A stretch of 64,000 nucleotides of DNA, taken from positions 1-64,000 of the forward strand of contig NZ_SBIV01000007.1 of NCBI RefSeq assembly GCF_004765795.1. Reading direction: 5' to 3'. Shown piece after piece: positions 3,341-12,826 of the stretch. This DNA comes from Halorussus marinus. GTDB taxonomy: Archaea > Halobacteriota > Halobacteria > Halobacteriales > Haladaptataceae. The translations under genes and the position numbers were made by a program. The notes under the pieces were generated by a model. It saw only the letters and a program-made list of their open reading frames with translations. It was not told the origin of the DNA and did not search any database. Each line of letters begins with the position of its first letter. Position 1 is the stretch's first letter.

Positions 3341-4060
3341 TTAGTTCAATTCATTCCGTACAGCTGAGTAGAGGAAGTCCTCGACGTCCCGGTATGTCGG
3401 GTCGTCTGCGACCTCGGCCTCGATCCGATCCCAGAGTTCCTCGGGTACTTCGAGCCGCCGGCCGCCTGTCCGCGCCTCCCGCAGCGCCTCAAGGTCGATG
3501 TCGTAGGCCTCCTCGTCGTAATGGGCGTTGAACGCGGCGTCGGCCGCCTCGAGGTTGGTGTGGTTGTCGGGTATGTCCGGCGCCGACTCGGACTCGTCAA
3601 TTACCGCCCGGAGTTCGTACTCCTTGTACGCCTCTCGGATGTCGTCTACGAAGTCCCAGTACTCCTCGACGGACGCCGTCTGCCTGTTGGGTGCATCGTA
3701 GCCGAGCGCCTCCATCCCGATCACAGCCCGCTTGTTGAGGATGGCATACGTGTCCGGGGCGAGAACATGGAGTAGCTCGGTTGCGGTCGCCCAGCCGAAG
3801 CCGTCGAGTTCCAGCACGTCTTCGAGGGCATCCGTATCCTCGAGCGCCCGCTCGACGGTGGCAACGACCTCATCGGGACTCTGGTCGTCCAAGACGATGT
3901 TGTCGACGTAGTGGTCGATGCTTCCCCGTGTCTCGGTCGCCCAGAAGCCGTTGTGGGAGACCAGTTCCACGAACGTGTCGCGGGACGGGGTTTCGAGGAA
4001 GTTCTCGGCCAGTTCACGTTTCTCTCCGATGTCGTCGTTCCGATCTGGGTAGTAGCTCAT
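3341..4060 (-). CDS. Hypothetical protein with an HhH-like segment (GFGWATATELLH...YAILNKR) and an RHH-like C-terminus
   Basis: Acidic ORF; resembles DNA-binding domains seen in restriction-associated proteins (inference). Confidence 0.7.
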   Translation of the reverse strand: MSYYPDRNDDIGEKRELAENFLETPSRDTFVELVSHNGFWATETRGSIDHYVDNIVLDDQSPDEVVATVERALEDTDALEDVLELDGFGWATATELLHVLAPDTYAILNKRAVIGMEALGYDAPNRQTASVEEYWDFVDDIREAYKEYELRAVIDESESAPDIPDNHTNLEAADAAFNAHYDEEAYDIDLEALREARTGGRRLEVPEELWDRIEAEVADDPTYRDVEDFLYSAVRNELN

Positions 4061-4413
4061 TTGCTTCATCTCGTTCTGTTTCGAACTTCGTTCCTTCTCG
4101 ATAGCGACCAATCTTCATTCTCTGTTCGTAGTTCTATTGGGATAAGTATTTTCCCAAGTCGTGCAATCAGTAGCGCGTATTCGAAAAATTTCCGGGAAAT
4201 AGAGCATCTGAGCGGGAAACTCGCCGTCCCTATAGTCGATTTTCCGGTTCTGTTAATGGGATCAGGCTTCCGGAATGCGATTGATTCAGGGGATTCACAA
4301 TCGCGTTACTGGCCGCTAATTTTCCCGATAGCACCAGGGTCGTCCAGATGTTTTCCGGAAACAACCCAATCACGTTTTTAGTACTAGCCAGAAAACCAGT
4401 CTACCAAGCAACG

Positions 4414-5442
4414 ATGATCCGCGATGCTCGCGTTCTCCGCGCCGGGTTCGTCCCTCGGGAAGTTGAGCATCGCGACGCCGAAGTCAACCACCTCTCCAGC
4501 GTCCTCGAGCCCATCACGAACGGAGAACCAGCCGACACAGCCATCGTCACCGGACCCAGCGGCGCCGGCAAGACCTGCATCTCGCAATTCGTCACCGAAC
4601 GACTCCGGGAAGAGGTCCTGGACGTTGAGGCCACCTACGTCAACTGCTGGCGTAATTACACCCGATTTCGGACGCTCTACCAGATCCTCGACGACCTCGG
4701 CGCGACCATCGACATCCACCGGCAGTCGACGCCGCATGACGAACTCGTTGACCGCCTCCAGCAGCATGACGGCCCGCGAACCGTCGTCATCCTCGACGAG
4801 GTCGACCAGCTCGAAGACCCCAGCGTCATCTACGACCTCCACAGCCTCCCGCAGTTCGCGATCATCTGCATCGCGAACAAGGAAGAGGAGCTGTTCAGCC
4901 GCGTCGACGACCGCCTCGTGAGCCGCCTGCGCTCCAGCGAACACGTCCGGATGGCCAAGTACCACGACGAGCAGCTGTACGACATCCTGAGTGCGCGGGC
5001 GAAGTGGGGGCTCGACGAGAACGTCATCACCGACGACCAGCTCTACCGGATCGCCGACGCGGCCGCCGGCGACGCCCGCCTCGCAATCGGCATCCTCCGC
5101 ACGGCCGCCGGCAAGGCCGACCGCGAAAACCACGAACGCATCACCGACGACATTCTCCTGGACGCCGCCGAGGATGCTCGGGCCCAGATTAAGCAGAAGA
5201 GCATCGATTCACTCACGCCACACCAGCGGGTTGTCTACGACATTGTCTGCGACTATGGCCCACTCGGACCAAGCAAAATCTATGATCGCTATACTGACGA
5301 GGTTGATGATCCACGAACTAAGCGAACCATTCGGACGTATCTGTCCAAAATGACGCAATACAACCTCCTCAGAGCGGACGGGTCAAGCCGGGATCGAGAA
5401 TACACAGCCATCGATCAACCATCTCCCATACTCGCTGAGTAG
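4414..5442 (+). CDS. cdc6: Orc1/Cdc6 family protein (short plasmid-type paralog)
   Basis: Walker A GPSGAGKT, YVNC, Walker B ILDEVD, GDARLAI, C-terminal wHTH. Confidence 0.92.
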   Translation: MIRDARVLRAGFVPREVEHRDAEVNHLSSVLEPITNGEPADTAIVTGPSGAGKTCISQFVTERLREEVLDVEATYVNCWRNYTRFRTLYQILDDLGATIDIHRQSTPHDELVDRLQQHDGPRTVVILDEVDQLEDPSVIYDLHSLPQFAIICIANKEEELFSRVDDRLVSRLRSSEHVRMAKYHDEQLYDILSARAKWGLDENVITDDQLYRIADAAAGDARLAIGILRTAAGKADRENHERITDDILLDAAEDARAQIKQKSIDSLTPHQRVVYDIVCDYGPLGPSKIYDRYTDEVDDPRTKRTIRTYLSKMTQYNLLRADGSSRDREYTAIDQPSPILAE

Positions 5443-6799
5443 GGGGAAACGGAACTGGCCCTTCCGGTAACTATTAAGTGGCTTTGTGACTACATTGAAT
5501 ATAGTGTCGGACGACGAGTATCACCGCCGAACGGCCATCACACGACTGGCTGTATCCCCATCTGACGAAAAACTTCTCCGAGATACCATCAAGCAGTGGA
5601 AACAGGGGTGCCAGATTGCCGTAGATAAGGCGTGGGAGCGGTGCCACTCGAAGTCCGACATCCAGCAACTTGCCTACGACGACGTGCGAGAGGCCACTAG
5701 TCTCAGCAGCCAACACGCCATTCTCGCGTGTCATCAAGCAGCTGAGAACATCAAATCCTGTATCTCCCGTCGTCAAAACGGGAAGAAAGCGAGCAAGCCC
5801 ACATATACGAGTCCGACCATCACTTACGACAGTCGGACAATGACCCTCTTCCCCGAGAAAGAAGAGGTGACGCTCACCACGCACGGCGACCACTCGCGAA
5901 CCCGAGTCAGCCTCGTCCTACCAGACGAGGAAACCGGCTACCAGTACCAGTATTTCGACAGCGACGAGTGGGAATCCACGGAATCCACGCTCCACTACCG
6001 TGACGGCGGATGGTATCTACACATTGGCTTCCGGAAACTGACGCAAGACGCTGAGGAAGAGACGACCGAGAACGGAACGGTTCTCGGCGTTGACCTTGGC
6101 GTGAACGAGATAGCTGTGACCAGCACTGCTCGGTTCTTTTCTGCTGGTGAATTAAGTCATAAGCGCCGGGAGTTTAAACGAGTGCGTGGGAATCTCGAAG
6201 ATCGTGGTACGCGGAACGCTCACCGTGCTCTACAAGCGGTGAGTGGCCGGGAAAACGAGTACGTGAAACACATCCTCCACAGGGTGGCAAACGGAATCGT
6301 CGAGGAAGCGCTGCGCTACGACTGTGATGGAATCGTTTTTGAGGAGTTAGATGGAATTCGGGAGCGACTTCCTAAAGCGGATTGGCACTCTGAATGGGCA
6401 TTTCACCGTCTCTACGAGTACGTCGAGTACAAGGCAGAGGCAGAAGGAGTGTTCGTAGATACAACGAATCCAAAGAACACCAGCATACGGTGCGCTGAGT
6501 GTGGCTCGATACACAGAAAGAACCGCTCTACTCGAGAAAGATTCGAGTGTCAGAACTGTGGGAACCGGAACCACGCGGATTACAATGCCGCTAAGAACGT
6601 CGCAGACGTGTATCTCCGACGTGAGCAACAGTCCTCACGTCGGAGGGGCGTCAGTCAATACGCCCTGAAGTCCGGGACTGTGACGCCGAACCGGGGATAC
6701 ACCCCGTACCCCGACGGGTTCGAGGCTGAGTCCGCGGACAAGCCCCACTCTCCACGAGCGAACCCACCAGGGTGAGCGAAGCAGGTTGGGGTTGTTGAC
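5443..6799 (+). mobile_element. IS1341-type element 1 (tnpB only); right end ...gttgttgac at 6799; left end approximate
   Basis: tnpB followed by a hairpin-containing end terminating in TTGAC; no tnpA. Confidence 0.7.
5504..6775 (+). CDS. tnpB: TnpB, RNA-guided endonuclease (IS200/IS605, IS1341-type)
   Basis: RuvC-I GVDLG, RuvC-II VFEEL, Zn finger CAECG/CQNCG, RuvC-III ADYNAAKN. Confidence 0.92.
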   Translation: MSDDEYHRRTAITRLAVSPSDEKLLRDTIKQWKQGCQIAVDKAWERCHSKSDIQQLAYDDVREATSLSSQHAILACHQAAENIKSCISRRQNGKKASKPTYTSPTITYDSRTMTLFPEKEEVTLTTHGDHSRTRVSLVLPDEETGYQYQYFDSDEWESTESTLHYRDGGWYLHIGFRKLTQDAEEETTENGTVLGVDLGVNEIAVTSTARFFSAGELSHKRREFKRVRGNLEDRGTRNAHRALQAVSGRENEYVKHILHRVANGIVEEALRYDCDGIVFEELDGIRERLPKADWHSEWAFHRLYEYVEYKAEAEGVFVDTTNPKNTSIRCAECGSIHRKNRSTRERFECQNCGNRNHADYNAAKNVADVYLRREQQSSRRRGVSQYALKSGTVTPNRGYTPYPDGFEAESADKPHSPRANPPG

Positions 6800-7049
6800 G
6801 CAGAAGAGTCTCGATTTACTCACTCCGTACCAGCGCGTCGTCTACGACATCGTTCGCGAGCACGGCCCGGTCGGGCCGAGCGAGATTCACGAGCGCTATA
6901 CCGAGGAGGTCGATGATCCACGGACGAAGCGGACTGTTCGGGCGTATTTGTCTAAGATGACTCAATACAACCTCGTCGAAGCAGACGGATCCAGCCGAGA
7001 TCGCGAATACACAGCCATCGACCAGCCATCTGCTACGCTCCCTGAGTAG
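6800..7049 (+). pseudogene. Second copy of the cdc6 3' end (wHTH), diverged duplicate of 5193..5442
   Basis: 250-nt colinear match (QKSLDLLTPYQRVVYDIV...EYTAIDQPS) starting exactly at the IS right end. Confidence 0.85.
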
Positions 7050-7207
7050 TTGGGTAGGACAACACACCTTCACCAAGACAGCCTATGATCCGTTGTAATC
7101 TCGGAGCGAGGGAAAACCGGCCTAAGTCTAGAGAAATCCACTCCAGCATCACGTTTCTAATCCAGGAAGATTCAGGAGACAATTTTCAACTTGGTTGTTG
7201 AGATTGT

Positions 7208-8317
7208 CTACTCGTAGACGACTTCTAGAATCGTATATAATGTGAACATCAAGAACAGAATCGATATTGTTGAGATATTTTCATCGAAGTATGCAGTTAG
7301 ACTGCCGTGCATGATTGCGTTTCGATGATCCCAGAAATCCTCCAGATTGGCTTCAATCTTGTCAGCATCAACTCCGTAGTATCCGTGGTCAATCTCTTCG
7401 TATGCTTCCTTCAGTGCCTGACGTTTCTGAGATGAAGTGTAGTAGCCATTACCGTCAGGCGTTTTGCCTTGATCTGAACAGAGGATATCCATCAAACCAT
7501 CCTGAACACTAATGAAAATGAAACAGGGAAGCATGAACTCCTCATTCAGATAGGCCTCTAGTCCTCTATCGATCCGACCGGTATAGTCATCTAACTCTGC
7601 TTCATCCGACTCTTCCAAATCCTTCAGTAACGAGGCCACAGATTCAACACCAACCTGCTGTGCCCGAGTATCAATCTCGACATCGTCAATTTCGTAGTTT
7701 TCTGGGTTATCGAAGTTCTGAATGCCGTTCTCTAATGCTTGTTGAACTTCCAGATAGTGTTCCCGAATTGACGCTATTATATCTCCAAAATCAATATCAG
7801 CCAATACCCCTTGAAGAGTCCTTTCCAAACGCTGCATGCCCTTGTTGACCGGCTCCCAATCAACCCGATCAATTGTCTCAGCCAATTTTTCTGCTGGTAC
7901 CCCACCAGTGAATTCTCTGGGAGGGTCTTTCAATTCGACACTACTGAGATCGTGTTCCTGATACAATGCTCCGACAAACTCGCGGACATAATCTTTTGCA
8001 GCTTCGACAGACCAATCACCTTCTCCAGCTACTTCTTCTATACTATTTTCCCGGACGAAGAACCGAATACCGGCCATATAACCACGGGTTGAAGCAACAT
8101 CTAAAGGATATGAATAAATCAACTGAAAAAGTTTCAAAGCTTCTCTCGCCCGGTCTTCATCTAAACCGAGATCTTCCTCGACTTGGGACACATCCTCCGT
8201 TTCCTGATACAGATGGCCCGCCTCGCGAATCGTTTCACACCACCGAAATTCGACCAGACGTTGTTGTTCCTCTCTCTTCTGTCTAAGCGTTTCTAGCAAC
8301 TCATGAACATCCGACAT
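7208..8317 (-). CDS. Hypothetical protein with a C-terminal HEPN-like RxxxxH motif (RNAIMH)
   Basis: 369-aa AT-rich ORF; HRNAIMHG near the C-terminus. Confidence 0.65.
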   Translation of the reverse strand: MSDVHELLETLRQKREEQQRLVEFRWCETIREAGHLYQETEDVSQVEEDLGLDEDRAREALKLFQLIYSYPLDVASTRGYMAGIRFFVRENSIEEVAGEGDWSVEAAKDYVREFVGALYQEHDLSSVELKDPPREFTGGVPAEKLAETIDRVDWEPVNKGMQRLERTLQGVLADIDFGDIIASIREHYLEVQQALENGIQNFDNPENYEIDDVEIDTRAQQVGVESVASLLKDLEESDEAELDDYTGRIDRGLEAYLNEEFMLPCFIFISVQDGLMDILCSDQGKTPDGNGYYTSSQKRQALKEAYEEIDHGYYGVDADKIEANLEDFWDHRNAIMHGSLTAYFDENISTISILFLMFTLYTILEVVYE

Positions 8318-8464
8318 TATCTTGATTAGTTACTTCTCTGCCGTATAATGATTTTCCTACCGTTAGCAGCTATACCATTTCGGGAGCACGCTTCATCACC
8401 AAGAGAGCCAGTGTCCACGCCGGGAGAAACAGATGATCCGAACGTATCTCTCGAAGATGGAGCA

Positions 8465-9807
8465 GTGAACCGCCCCAGAGTCAAGCTCCGAGACTTCCTG
8501 CTTCCACGACGCGCTTTGCAGACACCGAATCGGTGTCCGTAGGGAGCGCAGTCTCCACAGGCGTGTCTTCGGGCCATCCCAGCCCTAACTCAGCAAAGCC
8601 GCGTTTAAGCACATTCATCGCTGCGTTCGCGTCCCTGTCGACCTCGAACCCGCACGACGGACAGGAGTGTTCCCGAACCCAGATAGATTTTGCCGTCTCC
8701 ACACCACACTTCGCACATTCTTTCGTTGTCCCAGCAGCTTCCACCTGCACGACGTGCGTGCCATACAGCTCGGCTTTGTACTCGAGGAGGGAGATGAACT
8801 GTCGCCACGCAGCATCCTGGGTGTTTCGCGCGAGGTGCGAATCCTCCAACATCCCCTTCACGTCCAAATCCTCGACGAAGACGGCGTCGTACTCACGGAC
8901 GAGCCAAGTCGTAATCTTATGCTGGAAGTCCTCGACCTTCCGCTTGATGTGGCGCTTGACTTTCGCTACCTCACGACGCTGCTTCTCGTAGTTGGACGAC
9001 CCCCTCTGCTTGCGAGACAGCTTACGTTGCTCGCGTCGGAGGCGCTCGTATTCGCCTTCGAGATCGAGCCAATCCACGGTCTTGCCATCAGATGTTTGGA
9101 TGTAGTTGAGGATGCCGAGGTCGATACCCACGCTGTTGCTTGCGTTCAACGAATCCACGTCGGGCTTCTCGGGGAGATCAGCCTCGTCGGTTTCGAGGGC
9201 GAAGGTGACGAACCACTCACCAGTCGTCTCCTTCTTGATCGTGACCTCCTTGATGTCCGCTTCATCGGGAAGGGGACGATGGTAGCGGATCGGAATATCT
9301 CCGATTTTAGAGAGCCAGAGCGTCGCACGTCGGCCACTCGTGTTTTTGAGTTTGAAGCCGTGCTGCGAGTACGTGATACTCTGGAACTCTCGTGGTGATT
9401 TCCACTTGAGATTCCCGACCTTGTTCCCGTTCTCTTTTTGTTGAGAGAGGTTCGAGAGGTTGTCGTAGAACAGGGTGACGGTTCGCTGAAGGGCTTTCGC
9501 GTTCACCTCTGTGAACACGGGGAACTCGTCCTTCCAGTCCGGGAGACGACTGTGGTGTTTGTATGCAGACCCGGTACTGTCAGCATCGAGGTGCGTGTAC
9601 TCGTATCGGGTGTAGTTGTACGCTTGGCGATGAATGTCGATGTGATGTTCCAGCTCAGCCGCTACCTCTTGTGTCGGGTACGCGGGGTAGCGGTGAGTGT
9701 ACTCCATCGCTGTCTTCTCATTAGAACGTGTCCGGCAAATGGTTTGTGGGACGGACCGTTGAGTTCATTCCCGGAATTCAAGCTCTCGGGAAAGTCGCCT
9801 GAACAGT
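8465..9807 (-). mobile_element. IS1341-type element 2
   Basis: Right end on the minus strand: ctcggagcttgactctggggcggTTCAC. Left-end hairpin ttcccggaattcaagctctcgggaa near 9770-9793. Left boundary approximate. Confidence 0.7.
8481..9707 (-). CDS. tnpB: TnpB, RNA-guided endonuclease (IS605 OrfB)
   Basis: N-terminal HTH_OrfB-like YPTQE, GIDLG, FVEDL, CAKCG/CPSCG, DRDANAAMN. Confidence 0.93.
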   Translation of the reverse strand: MEYTHRYPAYPTQEVAAELEHHIDIHRQAYNYTRYEYTHLDADSTGSAYKHHSRLPDWKDEFPVFTEVNAKALQRTVTLFYDNLSNLSQQKENGNKVGNLKWKSPREFQSITYSQHGFKLKNTSGRRATLWLSKIGDIPIRYHRPLPDEADIKEVTIKKETTGEWFVTFALETDEADLPEKPDVDSLNASNSVGIDLGILNYIQTSDGKTVDWLDLEGEYERLRREQRKLSRKQRGSSNYEKQRREVAKVKRHIKRKVEDFQHKITTWLVREYDAVFVEDLDVKGMLEDSHLARNTQDAAWRQFISLLEYKAELYGTHVVQVEAAGTTKECAKCGVETAKSIWVREHSCPSCGFEVDRDANAAMNVLKRGFAELGLGWPEDTPVETALPTDTDSVSAKRVVEAGSLGA

Positions 9808-9894
9808 CAGTACAACCTCCTCGAGGCGGAAGGGACGAGTCGGGACCGAGAGTACTCGCTCGTCGATTCAGCGGCGGCGTCGCCGATGCAGTGA
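9808..9894 (+). pseudogene. Third cdc6 C-terminal fragment (QYNLLEAEGTSRDREYSLVDSAAASPMQ*)
   Basis: Manual translation matches the QYNLLRADGSSRDREY end of cdc6 4414..5442. Confidence 0.8.
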
Positions 9895-10140
9895 CCGTGA
9901 CCCCGTCAGCTATCAGGAACTGAACTCGCCGAGGCCCGATTGCTCGTGGTCCAGCGGCTCGATGATCTGGGGATCGTCGTTGCCGGGGTTGTTAACTCGC
10001 GTCGAGATCTCGTAAGCGTCTAGATCGTCCTTCGGATACGGCTGACACAGTTCCTTGCGGGTGTCCGGATCTGCGGCGAGCCAGTCAGATTCCGCGTCCT
10101 GTGGAAGGACGACCGGCATCCGGTCGTGGATTGAGTTCAT

Positions 10141-11560
10141 AGTGATTGTGAGGCGGATACCCTGATCCTTGAGGGCAGGGAGGAAGCCGACACCCGATGA
10201 CACAAACTAAACACGGTGCCAAGGCCGACTCCCTCGGCATCTATAAATACCTTCAAGTATCTCTAAGCGTACTAATGAAGTATGGAGGTCGTCCGCAACA
10301 TCCAGCTCAAGCTCGACGTTCCCGAGGACGCTCACAGTGTCCTCGACGAGACGTTCGAGCAATTCCGTCAAGCGGCCCAACACGTCGCTGACGCTGGATG
10401 GAGTGACGACCCCACACAGATCAAGGACACGAAGAACACGCTCCACGAACAGACCTACACTACTGTTCGGGAGCAGACTGGTCTGCAAGCCAGCCTCGTC
10501 CAATCCGCCCGCAACCTCGCCGCCGACGCCCTCGGCAACTGCAAAGACCGTATCCTTGACGACGGCAAGAAAGCCAGCAAGCCCGAGTTCCGAGGAAGCG
10601 TGGTCGTGTACAACGGACGCACCATCACGTACAACGACGACCACGTTACCCTCGCCACCGTGGACGACCGCGTGACCGCCGAGTTTGTCACACCCGAAGA
10701 TGAGGAAGGGACGCCGTTTGCGGAGTATTGGACGGACGACTGGGAACGCAAGGAAGCCACGCTCCACAAACGTGACGGCACGTACTACCTCCACGTCGCA
10801 GTCGAGAAAGAAGTCGAACCCGCTGATTCTGGTGACCAGCAACCCGAGAACGGAGTGGTTCTCGGCGTCGATTTGAACGTGGACGGATACCTCGCCGTCA
10901 CCAGCACGGGAGCGTTCCTCGGTAATGCAGACTACCTCAACCACAAACGCGACGAGTATGAACGTCGGCGCGGCAACCTCCAACAGACAGGCACTCGCTC
11001 CGCGCACCTCACCATCAAGAGCATCGGCTCACGGTTTTCTCGGTGGAGTGCGGACTACCTCCACCGCGTCTCGAAAGCGATTGTGCAGGAGGCCGTGGAG
11101 AATGACTGCACGGCGATTGCGTTCGAGAATTTGAACCACATACGGAAGCGTATCTCGAACGCCAGCAAGTTCCAGCAGTGGGCGTTCCGCGAACTCGAAC
11201 GCCACGTCGAATACAAAGCCGAAGAGTACGGCATCGACGTAGACGATGTTGCCCCTGCCTACACGTCACAGCGGTGTAGTCACGACGAGTGCGGATTTAC
11301 CCACGAGGACAACCGTGATGGTGATGAGTTCGAGTGTCTGAAGTGTGGAAAGAAACTCCACGCCGATTATAACGCCGCTCGGAATATCGGGTGGCGGCTT
11401 GTCCAGCACTGGCTCAAGTCTGGTGCTGGACGGGCCACCAGTCAACTGGCCCTCAAGTCAGGGACGCTGAACGCGAATGGCACTTTCACGCCTTCCGCCC
11501 TGCGCGGATAGAGCGGGAGCCCACTGACAAGCCTCGGGGCTTGACCCCGAGGCAGTTGAC
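10141..11560 (+). mobile_element. IS1341-type element 3, inserted 3' of TTCAT with no target duplication
   Basis: Both junctions defined by in-frame restoration of SRAP. Left-end hairpin ccctgatccttgagggcaggg; right end cctcggggcttgaccccgagg-cagTTGAC. Confidence 0.9.
10282..11511 (+). CDS. tnpB: TnpB, RNA-guided endonuclease
   Basis: GVDLN, AFENL, YTSQRCS..CG, CLKCG, ADYNAARN. Confidence 0.93.
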   Translation: MEVVRNIQLKLDVPEDAHSVLDETFEQFRQAAQHVADAGWSDDPTQIKDTKNTLHEQTYTTVREQTGLQASLVQSARNLAADALGNCKDRILDDGKKASKPEFRGSVVVYNGRTITYNDDHVTLATVDDRVTAEFVTPEDEEGTPFAEYWTDDWERKEATLHKRDGTYYLHVAVEKEVEPADSGDQQPENGVVLGVDLNVDGYLAVTSTGAFLGNADYLNHKRDEYERRRGNLQQTGTRSAHLTIKSIGSRFSRWSADYLHRVSKAIVQEAVENDCTAIAFENLNHIRKRISNASKFQQWAFRELERHVEYKAEEYGIDVDDVAPAYTSQRCSHDECGFTHEDNRDGDEFECLKCGKKLHADYNAARNIGWRLVQHWLKSGAGRATSQLALKSGTLNANGTFTPSALRG

Positions 11561-12229
11561 CAGGTCGTTCGGCTCCGTTGTGATAATCGTGACGCACGAG
11601 ATCCTCTCGTCGTCGCCCTCCCAGACGTCCCAGAGCCCGGCCATCGCGAATGCGGGGTCGTCTTCGCGGTAGATCCGGTAGGGCTGTTTCGACCCGCCAT
11701 TCGATGATTGCCACTCGTAGAATCCCGACGAGAGGACCAGGCAGGGGCGGGATTCCCACGCCCGCTCGAAGACGCGTTTCTCGCCGGCAGTCTCGGAACG
11801 AGCGCTGATGATGCCCTCCTCGTGCTCATCCGCCCAGAACGGAATCAGCCCCCAGTGGTAGGCGTCGATCTCGTCGGAGCCCTCGTTCGTGATGATGTAG
11901 AGGTCCTCACCTGGCGCGATGTTGTATCGGGGTGTATACCCGCCGTCTGCGACGACCTCGGCGTCGAAACGGGCCTCGAGGTCGGCCTGATCGATGAAGA
12001 GCGAGTTTCGACCACACATACATCCTGATCCAACTGGGAGAGTCTTCAACGTATTTGAAAATGTGAAGGGCTGGTTCTGAGGCCCCTTCGTTTGATGGTA
12101 GATTTGGGATGATTGGCAAGTACAGAGGTTCTATACAACAGAGGAGGCTTCTATGGAAAACAGATAAACGGCACTTCTCTACTGACAACCTACAAAACTA
12201 TTTCACCATTACATCCGATTGGTGGAAGC

Positions 12230-12826
12230 ATGAAACGGGTGTTCTTCGACAAGATCGATTCTGTGGGTACATTCCCAGATAACAGAATCAAGATGGATAT
12301 CATCTTCCAGGATAGTAACGGGAATGAGTATGTCTGGACGCCGAAGTGGGAGGAGGTGATGAGTATATACGCTGAGTCAGAGAGAGTAGAGGAAATGAAT
12401 CTGGCAGGCGGAGAGTGGTTGGAGGAGTTGAAGGAAAAGAAGCAGTTCAGTGACGAGGTGCTGGATGAACTGGCAGAGGTTATCGCTGACGGACGTAGTA
12501 CGGATGAGATAGCTGATTTCTTCGAGATAGTTGGATTTGACGCGGATGAAATGGGGTACAATTTAAGCCATGATGATCCGTTGCGGAGTAAGGCTGAGGG
12601 CCATAGTAATCGCGTTTATATTGCTAAAGAGAAGTTGCAAGAGCTGAACAGCGAGGATTACCGATATGTTGTGCAGATTGTTCAGAAGGCCGCGGATCCT
12701 AAGCAGTATATCGGCGAGCAGGAGAAGCATCAAGAAGTGGTAGAGAAGTTGAATACGGCTTTAGAGTTTGAAAATCTCCGTGTTACGGAGGATGGGCGGG
12801 TTCTTCCGATAGAAAAGGACGGTTGA
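12230..12826 (+). CDS. Hypothetical protein (AT-rich, accessory)
   Basis: Acidic ORF; start refined to MKRVFFD. Confidence 0.6.
   Translation: MKRVFFDKIDSVGTFPDNRIKMDIIFQDSNGNEYVWTPKWEEVMSIYAESERVEEMNLAGGEWLEELKEKKQFSDEVLDELAEVIADGRSTDEIADFFEIVGFDADEMGYNLSHDDPLRSKAEGHSNRVYIAKEKLQELNSEDYRYVVQIVQKAADPKQYIGEQEKHQEVVEKLNTALEFENLRVTEDGRVLPIEKDG

Follow-up and report, generated by a model that had tools for sequence, protein, structure and literature searches.

The window analysed here is a stretch of 64,000 nucleotides from Halorussus marinus (contig NZ_SBIV01000007.1, positions 1 to 64,000). In its cdc6 module, a cdc6/orc1 gene runs into a 3′ end of foreign origin (copy A), followed by a tnpB gene with a predicted omegaRNA and by a displaced version of the same 3′ end (copy B). 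A cargo ORF, a third remnant of the cdc6 3′ end and an SRAP gene lie downstream, and three tnpB elements occur within 6 kb. The features are summarized in Table 1.

Table 1. Features of the cdc6 module in the window (positions counted from the first base of the window).
Feature	Position	Strand	Remarks
cdc6/orc1 5′ part, AAA+ and lid domains	4414..5192	+	Pfam AAA_22, Cdc6_lid
TTAA, target-motif (TAM) position directly 5′ of the breakpoint	5189..5192	+	
Copy A: foreign 3′ end of cdc6 now in use, 82 codons plus stop, covering the C-terminal helix-turn-helix region	5193..5442	+	
Junction zone between foreign tail and IS	5438..5468	+	IS left-end hairpin region missing
TATA-like element 5′ of tnpB	5472..5479	+	conserved among related elements
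tnpB, 423 aa, RuvC D197/E280/D359 and four zinc-finger cysteines	5504..6775	+	Pfam OrfB_IS605, Cas12f1-like_TNB
Predicted omegaRNA scaffold and IS right end GTTGAC	6610..6799	+	5′ edge approximate
Copy B: native 3′ end of cdc6, displaced; predicted guide in its first 16-20 nt	6800..7049	+	
Cargo ORF, 369 aa	7208..8317	-	AT-rich; no Pfam or PADLOC match
Left piece of the third cdc6 3′ remnant (canonical type)	8436..8464	+	94% to canonical tail
Second tnpB element (ORF 8481-9707), inserted in third remnant	8465..9809	-	
Right piece of the third cdc6 3′ remnant, immediately ahead of the SRAP stop	9808..9894	+	97% to canonical tail
SRAP gene, split by third tnpB element (10141-11560, after TTCAT)	9913..12022	-	Pfam SRAP

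The cdc6 gene of the window is an ordinary member of a widespread haloarchaeal family of plasmid type, with matches in 144 of 401 genomes at E<=1e-60. Its 5′ part is 93-96% identical to the 27 of 29 homologues that align without gaps, a range that leaves aside the gapped L053 and L055. Copies A and B are colinear and ungapped over 250 nt, at 79% identity and a spacing of 1607 nt (BLAST E 1e-57); their first 9 nt are identical, and identity is 79% afterwards. Among the 82 codons, 28 carry synonymous differences and 18 non-synonymous ones. The GC content is 64.7% in the 5′ part of the gene, 51.6% in copy A and 57.6% in copy B, with GC3 values of 85.3, 56.0 and 67.9, respectively. The initial annotation had described a colinear duplicate with many synonymous differences, whose in-use copy is richer in AT than the rest of the gene, and these values bear that description out.

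The further proposal that the in-use 3′ end is a replacement also held. Identity to the 29 cdc6 homologues is 75-81% for copy A and 80-91% for copy B, and divergence from the majority allele rises from 2.9% to 21.9% at a change point within 5183-5208 (best 5203). In the tree of cdc6 3′ ends, both copies belong to one tail clade (support 0.996), in which the branch of A is long (0.205), that of B is ordinary and the others measure 0.04-0.08. Synonymous divergence follows the same pattern: dS is 0.24-0.38 between B and the tails of other genomes, 1.03 between B and A, and 0.69-0.98 between A and its four nearest tails (dN/dS 0.08-0.14), the other tails of the clade differing among themselves by 0.24-0.42. 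Homologue identities, change point, tree and dS together indicate that B is the native end and that A came from outside. Copy A is heavily re-spelled yet under purifying selection. Trees and change points were computed without L084, and the change point of L080 is misaligned. The claim that the duplication is exact from the guide position survives for one edge: the sharp start of copy B follows from the insertion of the IS at that point, whereas the left edge of A can be placed only to 5183-5208, with a minority base at 5190, slightly 5′ of 5193. Among element-free alleles with other tails, 5 of 16 change-point intervals include 5193.

The protein encoded by tnpB retains the catalytic and zinc-finger residues that are invariant across all 39 aligned relatives. 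The omegaRNA region, which has no Rfam match, folds with a z-score of -4.27, and none of 200 shuffles is equally stable. The right end of the element is GTTGAC at 6794-6799 and copy B begins at the next base, as initially annotated; among 22 related elements, the right end reads GTTGAY in 17, is a variant in 2 and is absent in 3. Based on the haloarchaeal consensus, we take the TATA-like element upstream of tnpB to be a putative promoter; a sigma-70 promoter scan, whose model is unsuited to archaea, gave no result. In the 99.97% complete genome, no Y1_Tnp match to TnpA was found, the control being positive in 6 of 14 genomes. Its tnpB encodes the RuvC triad and a zinc finger, no tnpA accompanies it, and the right end is structured and conserved, all features of the IS1341 type; the element is a derivative of an IS1341-type member of IS200/IS605 rather than an intact one. 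Homology to related elements begins only at 5469-5472, and no left-end core motif was found in 5193-5503. Because the left end is gone, the element cannot transpose. The sequence AGTAGGG at 5438-5444, in the stop region of A, also occurs in related elements, towards the inside of their left ends. The initial annotation had named one finding as contrary to its reading, an empty allele in which a tandem cdc6 fragment already existed and the left end lay at 5443; none was encountered.

Relatives with 74-83% protein identity carry an ordinary left end of about 130 nt and lie at unrelated sites, preceded by TCAA in 7 of 8 cases and TTAA in 1 of 8 (six rechecked), with boundaries taken from alignment rather than from empty sites. 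At the right end, cdc6 is found in none of 22 relatives. A duplicate starting at the right end was seen in 0 of 24 testable relatives, a set without L016, L022, L029 and L030 (too short) and six others with less than 700 nt upstream, and at none of the six further tnpB sites of this genome. These sites and counts indicate that the parent was an ordinary IS1341-type element that inserted in cdc6 by chance, contrary to the earlier notion of an element built to target this gene. A duplicate in L025 was considered as a repaired gene and rejected, as it is a paralogous ORF pair flanking an intact IS. An Rfam scan of 4000-12500 returned no group I intron and a single chance match to a microRNA. The TnpBs of L009, L011 and L015, 53-82% identical to that of the window, belong to elements without a clear left-end core and with nearly the same right flank, possibly reflecting one conserved guide; L009 and L011 are located 3′ of an apparent tRNA 3′ end (putative).

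The position of the target motif was compared in 51 alleles, which are related rather than independent and from which L106 and L107 had been removed as duplicates. It reads TCAA in 37, TTAA in 13 and TCCA in 1, so that TYAA is present in 50 of 51. As stated at the outset, the predicted guide mismatches the resident site at positions 10, 11 and 18. The resident site thereby combines TTAA with two mismatches (10 and 11) within guide positions 1-12, whereas TCAA is combined with one mismatch in these positions in 30 of the 51 alleles and with none in 1 of 51. The guide matches none of the 51 alleles in full: position 18 is mismatched in 51/51 and position 10 in 48/51, both mismatches lying on the guide side. 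The resident 20-mer is also carried by 10 of the 51 alleles, all of them element-free. The predicted protection of the resident site is therefore not a special recoding by the element, and the idea of a recoded, cleavage-resistant tail stands in part: the resident site is more seed-mismatched than the commonest alleles, but a recoding of the tail against its own guide is not supported. Four bases of copy B are absent from a set of 39 alleles, three of them in the first 29 nt, two of these three changing an amino acid. Guide position 10 had at first seemed private to B in this set, a reading dropped when more diverged alleles were added, since T stands there in 3 of 51. In the case of ISDra2 TnpB, a protein distant from that of the window, double mismatches in positions 1-12 abolish cleavage according to the available text of PMC10097598, and by this analogy selective cutting is plausible.

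A 33-nt patch over the target (5179-5226) is identical in 9-10 of 45 alleles belonging to three otherwise different tail clades, and is the sole place in the gene where alleles that are only 71-74% alike over the following 150 nt share an identical minority haplotype of at least four derived bases (scan without L080, L084 and one gapped new row). This stretch fits a resistance patch, but also an older lineage with crossovers just downstream.

In the usual arrangement, the SRAP gene is convergent with cdc6 and directly adjoins it. Cargo lies between the two genes in 9 of 20 longer loci, which represent about three cassettes rather than nine events; all nine have a new cdc6 tail and an orphan remnant before SRAP, and none has tnpB between. 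Given these nine loci, tail replacement at this locus is common and does not require TnpB. A CBASS cassette (SMODS cyclase, E2-E1-JAB, TIR-SAVED) stands behind a replaced cdc6 tail in L105, L092, L094 and L099, and in these four loci the orphan tail begins at +2 of the insertion site of the window. The cargo of L086 and L091 is an NA37-like protein and a 580-aa protein, again between cdc6 and SRAP. In L086, the same cdc6 remnant also contains the two termini of the second tnpB element, whose central part has been lost. The element that splits SRAP is found at the same site in L099, which belongs to another family, at 96% identity over 2.3 kb.

Other samples contain the cassette as well. Between 28-41% of the sampled words occur in each of twenty runs, which come from 17 studies; no RNA run is among the matching runs listed, and four runs were examined in detail. 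Three of the four, produced by three different studies, contain contigs that span the junction of tail A and tnpB (5386-5587 in X1, 5352-5742 in X3 and 5340-5755 in X11, with 11 differences each), the junction variants being 2-5% diverged over 202-415 nt. As the junction recurs in this way, the cassette is a lineage; and as the three variants are distinct, both mutually and from the sequence of the window, these three samples are not the source of the window. The bridging pieces stop short of the 5′ haplotype. In X11, pieces tile tnpB, and the right end is bridged into B at 6642-6847 with 4 differences; the end of this piece at 6847 fits either a retained T at guide position 18 or a fork at 6848. 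The 13 listed changes in the tnpB of X11 comprise 6 synonymous and 7 non-synonymous ones. Pieces of tnpB are present in X2 and, among the pieces listed, none bridges the A junction, an uninformative gap; this run also contains a 92% A-like piece (5194-5399). In X1 and X3, joints lead from 5443 to 8440/8449 and skip tnpB. Five JGI TnpB proteins, known from protein sequence alone, are 97.7-98.8% identical and keep all catalytic residues, and a further protein, P0001, combines A-specific residues with a canonical end. The 369-aa cargo ORF is present at about 96% in X1.

Two observations in these runs were considered as signs of homing and rejected. In X11, the depth is 70-103 on the cassette and about 5 on the 369-aa ORF, but depth here is no copy number; in X2, B-type tails are joined to 8449 with omission of the 369-aa ORF, but these joints lie off the tnpB contig. 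No second assembled cassette was found in its own family (35 genomes, best 78%) or on viral contigs; no plasmid record covers 80% of 5193-7049; nine loci on metagenome contigs are all chance matches, with no second cassette; A is joined to the IS in 0 of 401 genomes; and the junction 15-mer occurs in 9 of 400 genomes, always by chance and with no real cassette, all these counts coming from searches in which the closest records to the window may be missing. With no second assembled copy, homing onto other alleles was not seen.

The reading that we favour, at slightly less than even confidence for the scheme as a whole, is that an accidental repair made a transposase-free homing-and-rescue cassette. 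An IS1341-type element would have inserted after TCAA in cdc6, a well supported step that would have severed the last 82 codons and turned them into the guide template. A diverged cdc6 allele would then probably have entered by recombination, homologous on the upstream side of the site and illegitimate within 5438-5468, where AGTAGGG could have provided microhomology; this exchange would have restored the gene and removed the left end of the IS. The cassette of foreign tail, tnpB and omegaRNA would have persisted from then on as the lineage that the other samples demonstrate. Without TnpA, it might work as an RNA-guided homing or competition element: TnpB would cut TCAA-type cdc6 alleles on sister or incoming replicons, and repair with the 5′ part of cdc6 and copy B as homology arms would copy the cassette, while the spare tail would keep Cdc6 whole and the two seed mismatches would shield the resident site. 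TnpB without TnpA activity biases plasmid inheritance (bioRxiv 10.1101/2025.02.20.638934, available text), and TnpB persists after the loss of TnpA in IStrons (PMC13565253, available text). We consider the origin, by insertion and then one repair event that removed the left end, to be probable. For a present homing or rival-cutting activity, the chances appear about evenly balanced. A stronger combination is rather unlikely, namely that the cassette is an active natural home-and-rescue drive on a plasmid replication-initiator gene, that 5179-5226 is a resistance haplotype spreading by gene conversion, and that the orphan-tail cassette with CBASS is an independent rescue of the same insertion.

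The same origin could also have left a passive relic, inherited with a mobile cdc6 module: its guide would have drifted, its TnpB would have ceased to cut cdc6, and the duplicate would simply be an orphan tail among others at a cargo hotspot. This main alternative is a real possibility, if one that we hold somewhat less probable than its negation. Orphan tails without tnpB in all nine cargo loci, including the CBASS cassette at +2 of the same site in four of them, point that way, as do the three early bases of B unseen in 39 alleles and the persistence, unrepaired, of the two other tnpB elements of the module, one common to L099 and one a relic in L086. A guide without a full match to any allele, which counts against the favoured reading, likewise fits the decay of a dead fragment. 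The favoured reading is also weakened by the failure of the searches above to find the cassette on another assembled cdc6 background, and by the frequency of tail replacement without TnpB at this locus. Against a relic stand the intact TnpB, omegaRNA region and TATA-like element, and a mismatch pattern that sets the resident site, with two seed mismatches, apart from the commonest alleles, which have one; moreover, as T at guide position 10 is found in natural alleles, its presence in B need not be decay. The architecture would be a by-product if recombination, or a deletion, had fused two modules that carried similar IS copies, the first just behind an intact A-type cdc6 and the second within a B-type cdc6. 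The density of tnpB elements in the module and the A-like tails that occur apart from the cassette (P0001, the 92% piece of X2, the tnpB-skipping joints of X1 and X3) favour this origin, but it requires an IS lacking its left end exactly behind the A stop, and a search of 401 genomes gave no case of an A-type cdc6 with this IS behind it and a different right flank; we regard it as clearly unlikely.

Two further origins seem highly improbable. A purpose-built, TnpA-mobile element with its left end at 5193 and a recoded cdc6 tail as cargo would account for the TTAA directly 5′ of 5193 and for the location of 5193 inside the change-point interval, but it conflicts with the missing left-end core, the genome without TnpA, the ordinary left ends of relatives at unrelated sites and the right-end duplicate in none of the 24 testable relatives. 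In the case of an early tandem duplication of this end of cdc6, with divergence in situ and an IS inserted between the copies, the common tail clade of A and B would be expected; B is nevertheless nearer to the tails of other genomes than to A in dS, and the right end adjoins B exactly at the TYAA site. That explanation and an assembly artefact, which we place at the same very low level, are both opposed by the bridging of the two junctions in other samples.

Among known systems, site-specific integrative elements that repair their target gene encode an integrase and are bounded by identical attachment cores. This class was rejected for the window, where only tnpB lies between the copies and identity extends over 9 nt before falling to 79%. 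The favoured reading, of a repaired insertion that became a homing-and-rescue cassette, has closer counterparts in the mORFs and gene hybrids of fungal mitochondria, which, in the text of PMC3630166 available, include Allomyces macrogynus atp6 and Glomus atp6, atp9, cox2 and nad3. There too a foreign C-terminus is in use, an endonuclease ORF lies behind it, and the native C-terminus is displaced downstream and is closer to the genes of relatives. The hybrids described in that text are mitochondrial and have protein-guided nucleases (LAGLIDADG or GIY-YIG); the window has an RNA-guided TnpB in an archaeon, and the displaced end is itself the guide template. With a duplicated C-terminus (foreign copy in use, native copy displaced), tnpB between the copies and no LAGLIDADG or GIY-YIG nuclease, the cassette may be taken to work like an mORF, but it is not one.

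IS1341-type elements, as far as described in the accessible parts of PMC10055086 and PMC4615843, resemble the window in having tnpB alone, a structured RNA at the right end, a guide taken from the right flank and the target motif at the left junction. A TnpB of IS200/IS605 type can displace plasmids without TnpA activity (bioRxiv 10.1101/2025.02.20.638934, in part). The window differs in that the left end is gone and a spare tail restores the gene that was interrupted, a kind of repair absent from the available text of these three sources. In IStrons and free-standing (intronless) homing endonucleases such as T4 SegF, the nuclease persists without a transposase, the own allele can be favoured over a rival and harm to the host gene is avoided (PMC13565253, accessible text), as would hold for the window; here, however, there is no group I intron, rescue is at the DNA level by the duplicate tail and specificity comes from RNA. 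Synthetic Cleave-and-Rescue and homing-rescue drives likewise link an RNA-guided cutter to a cleavage-resistant copy of its target (PMC6442612, available sections), but they are engineered, in animals, whereas the arrangement of the window is natural and probably accidental in origin, its activity being putative. A literature search that left most subscription papers outside its reach found no publication that describes a TnpB element carrying a substitute gene tail.

If the proposed scheme is true, a lethal or harmful IS insertion would have become, in one recombination step, a transposase-free homing element with built-in rescue, of the same design as engineered gene drives, and the mORF architecture would extend to RNA-guided nucleases and archaea. 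A cassette of this kind might spread by cleaving competing alleles and leaving its own intact. The locus offers a small testable system of one TnpB, one guide and natural alleles predicted to be sensitive or resistant. Even if the cassette is inactive, cdc6-SRAP is a hotspot where cargo, CBASS included, comes with a new cdc6 tail.

Upstream of the gene, a palindrome, TTTCCGGAAA, is located at 4351-4360, about 60 nt 5′ of the cdc6 start. It is also present in all five homologues scanned, in one with a single change and often twice, and represents a possible Cdc6 binding site.
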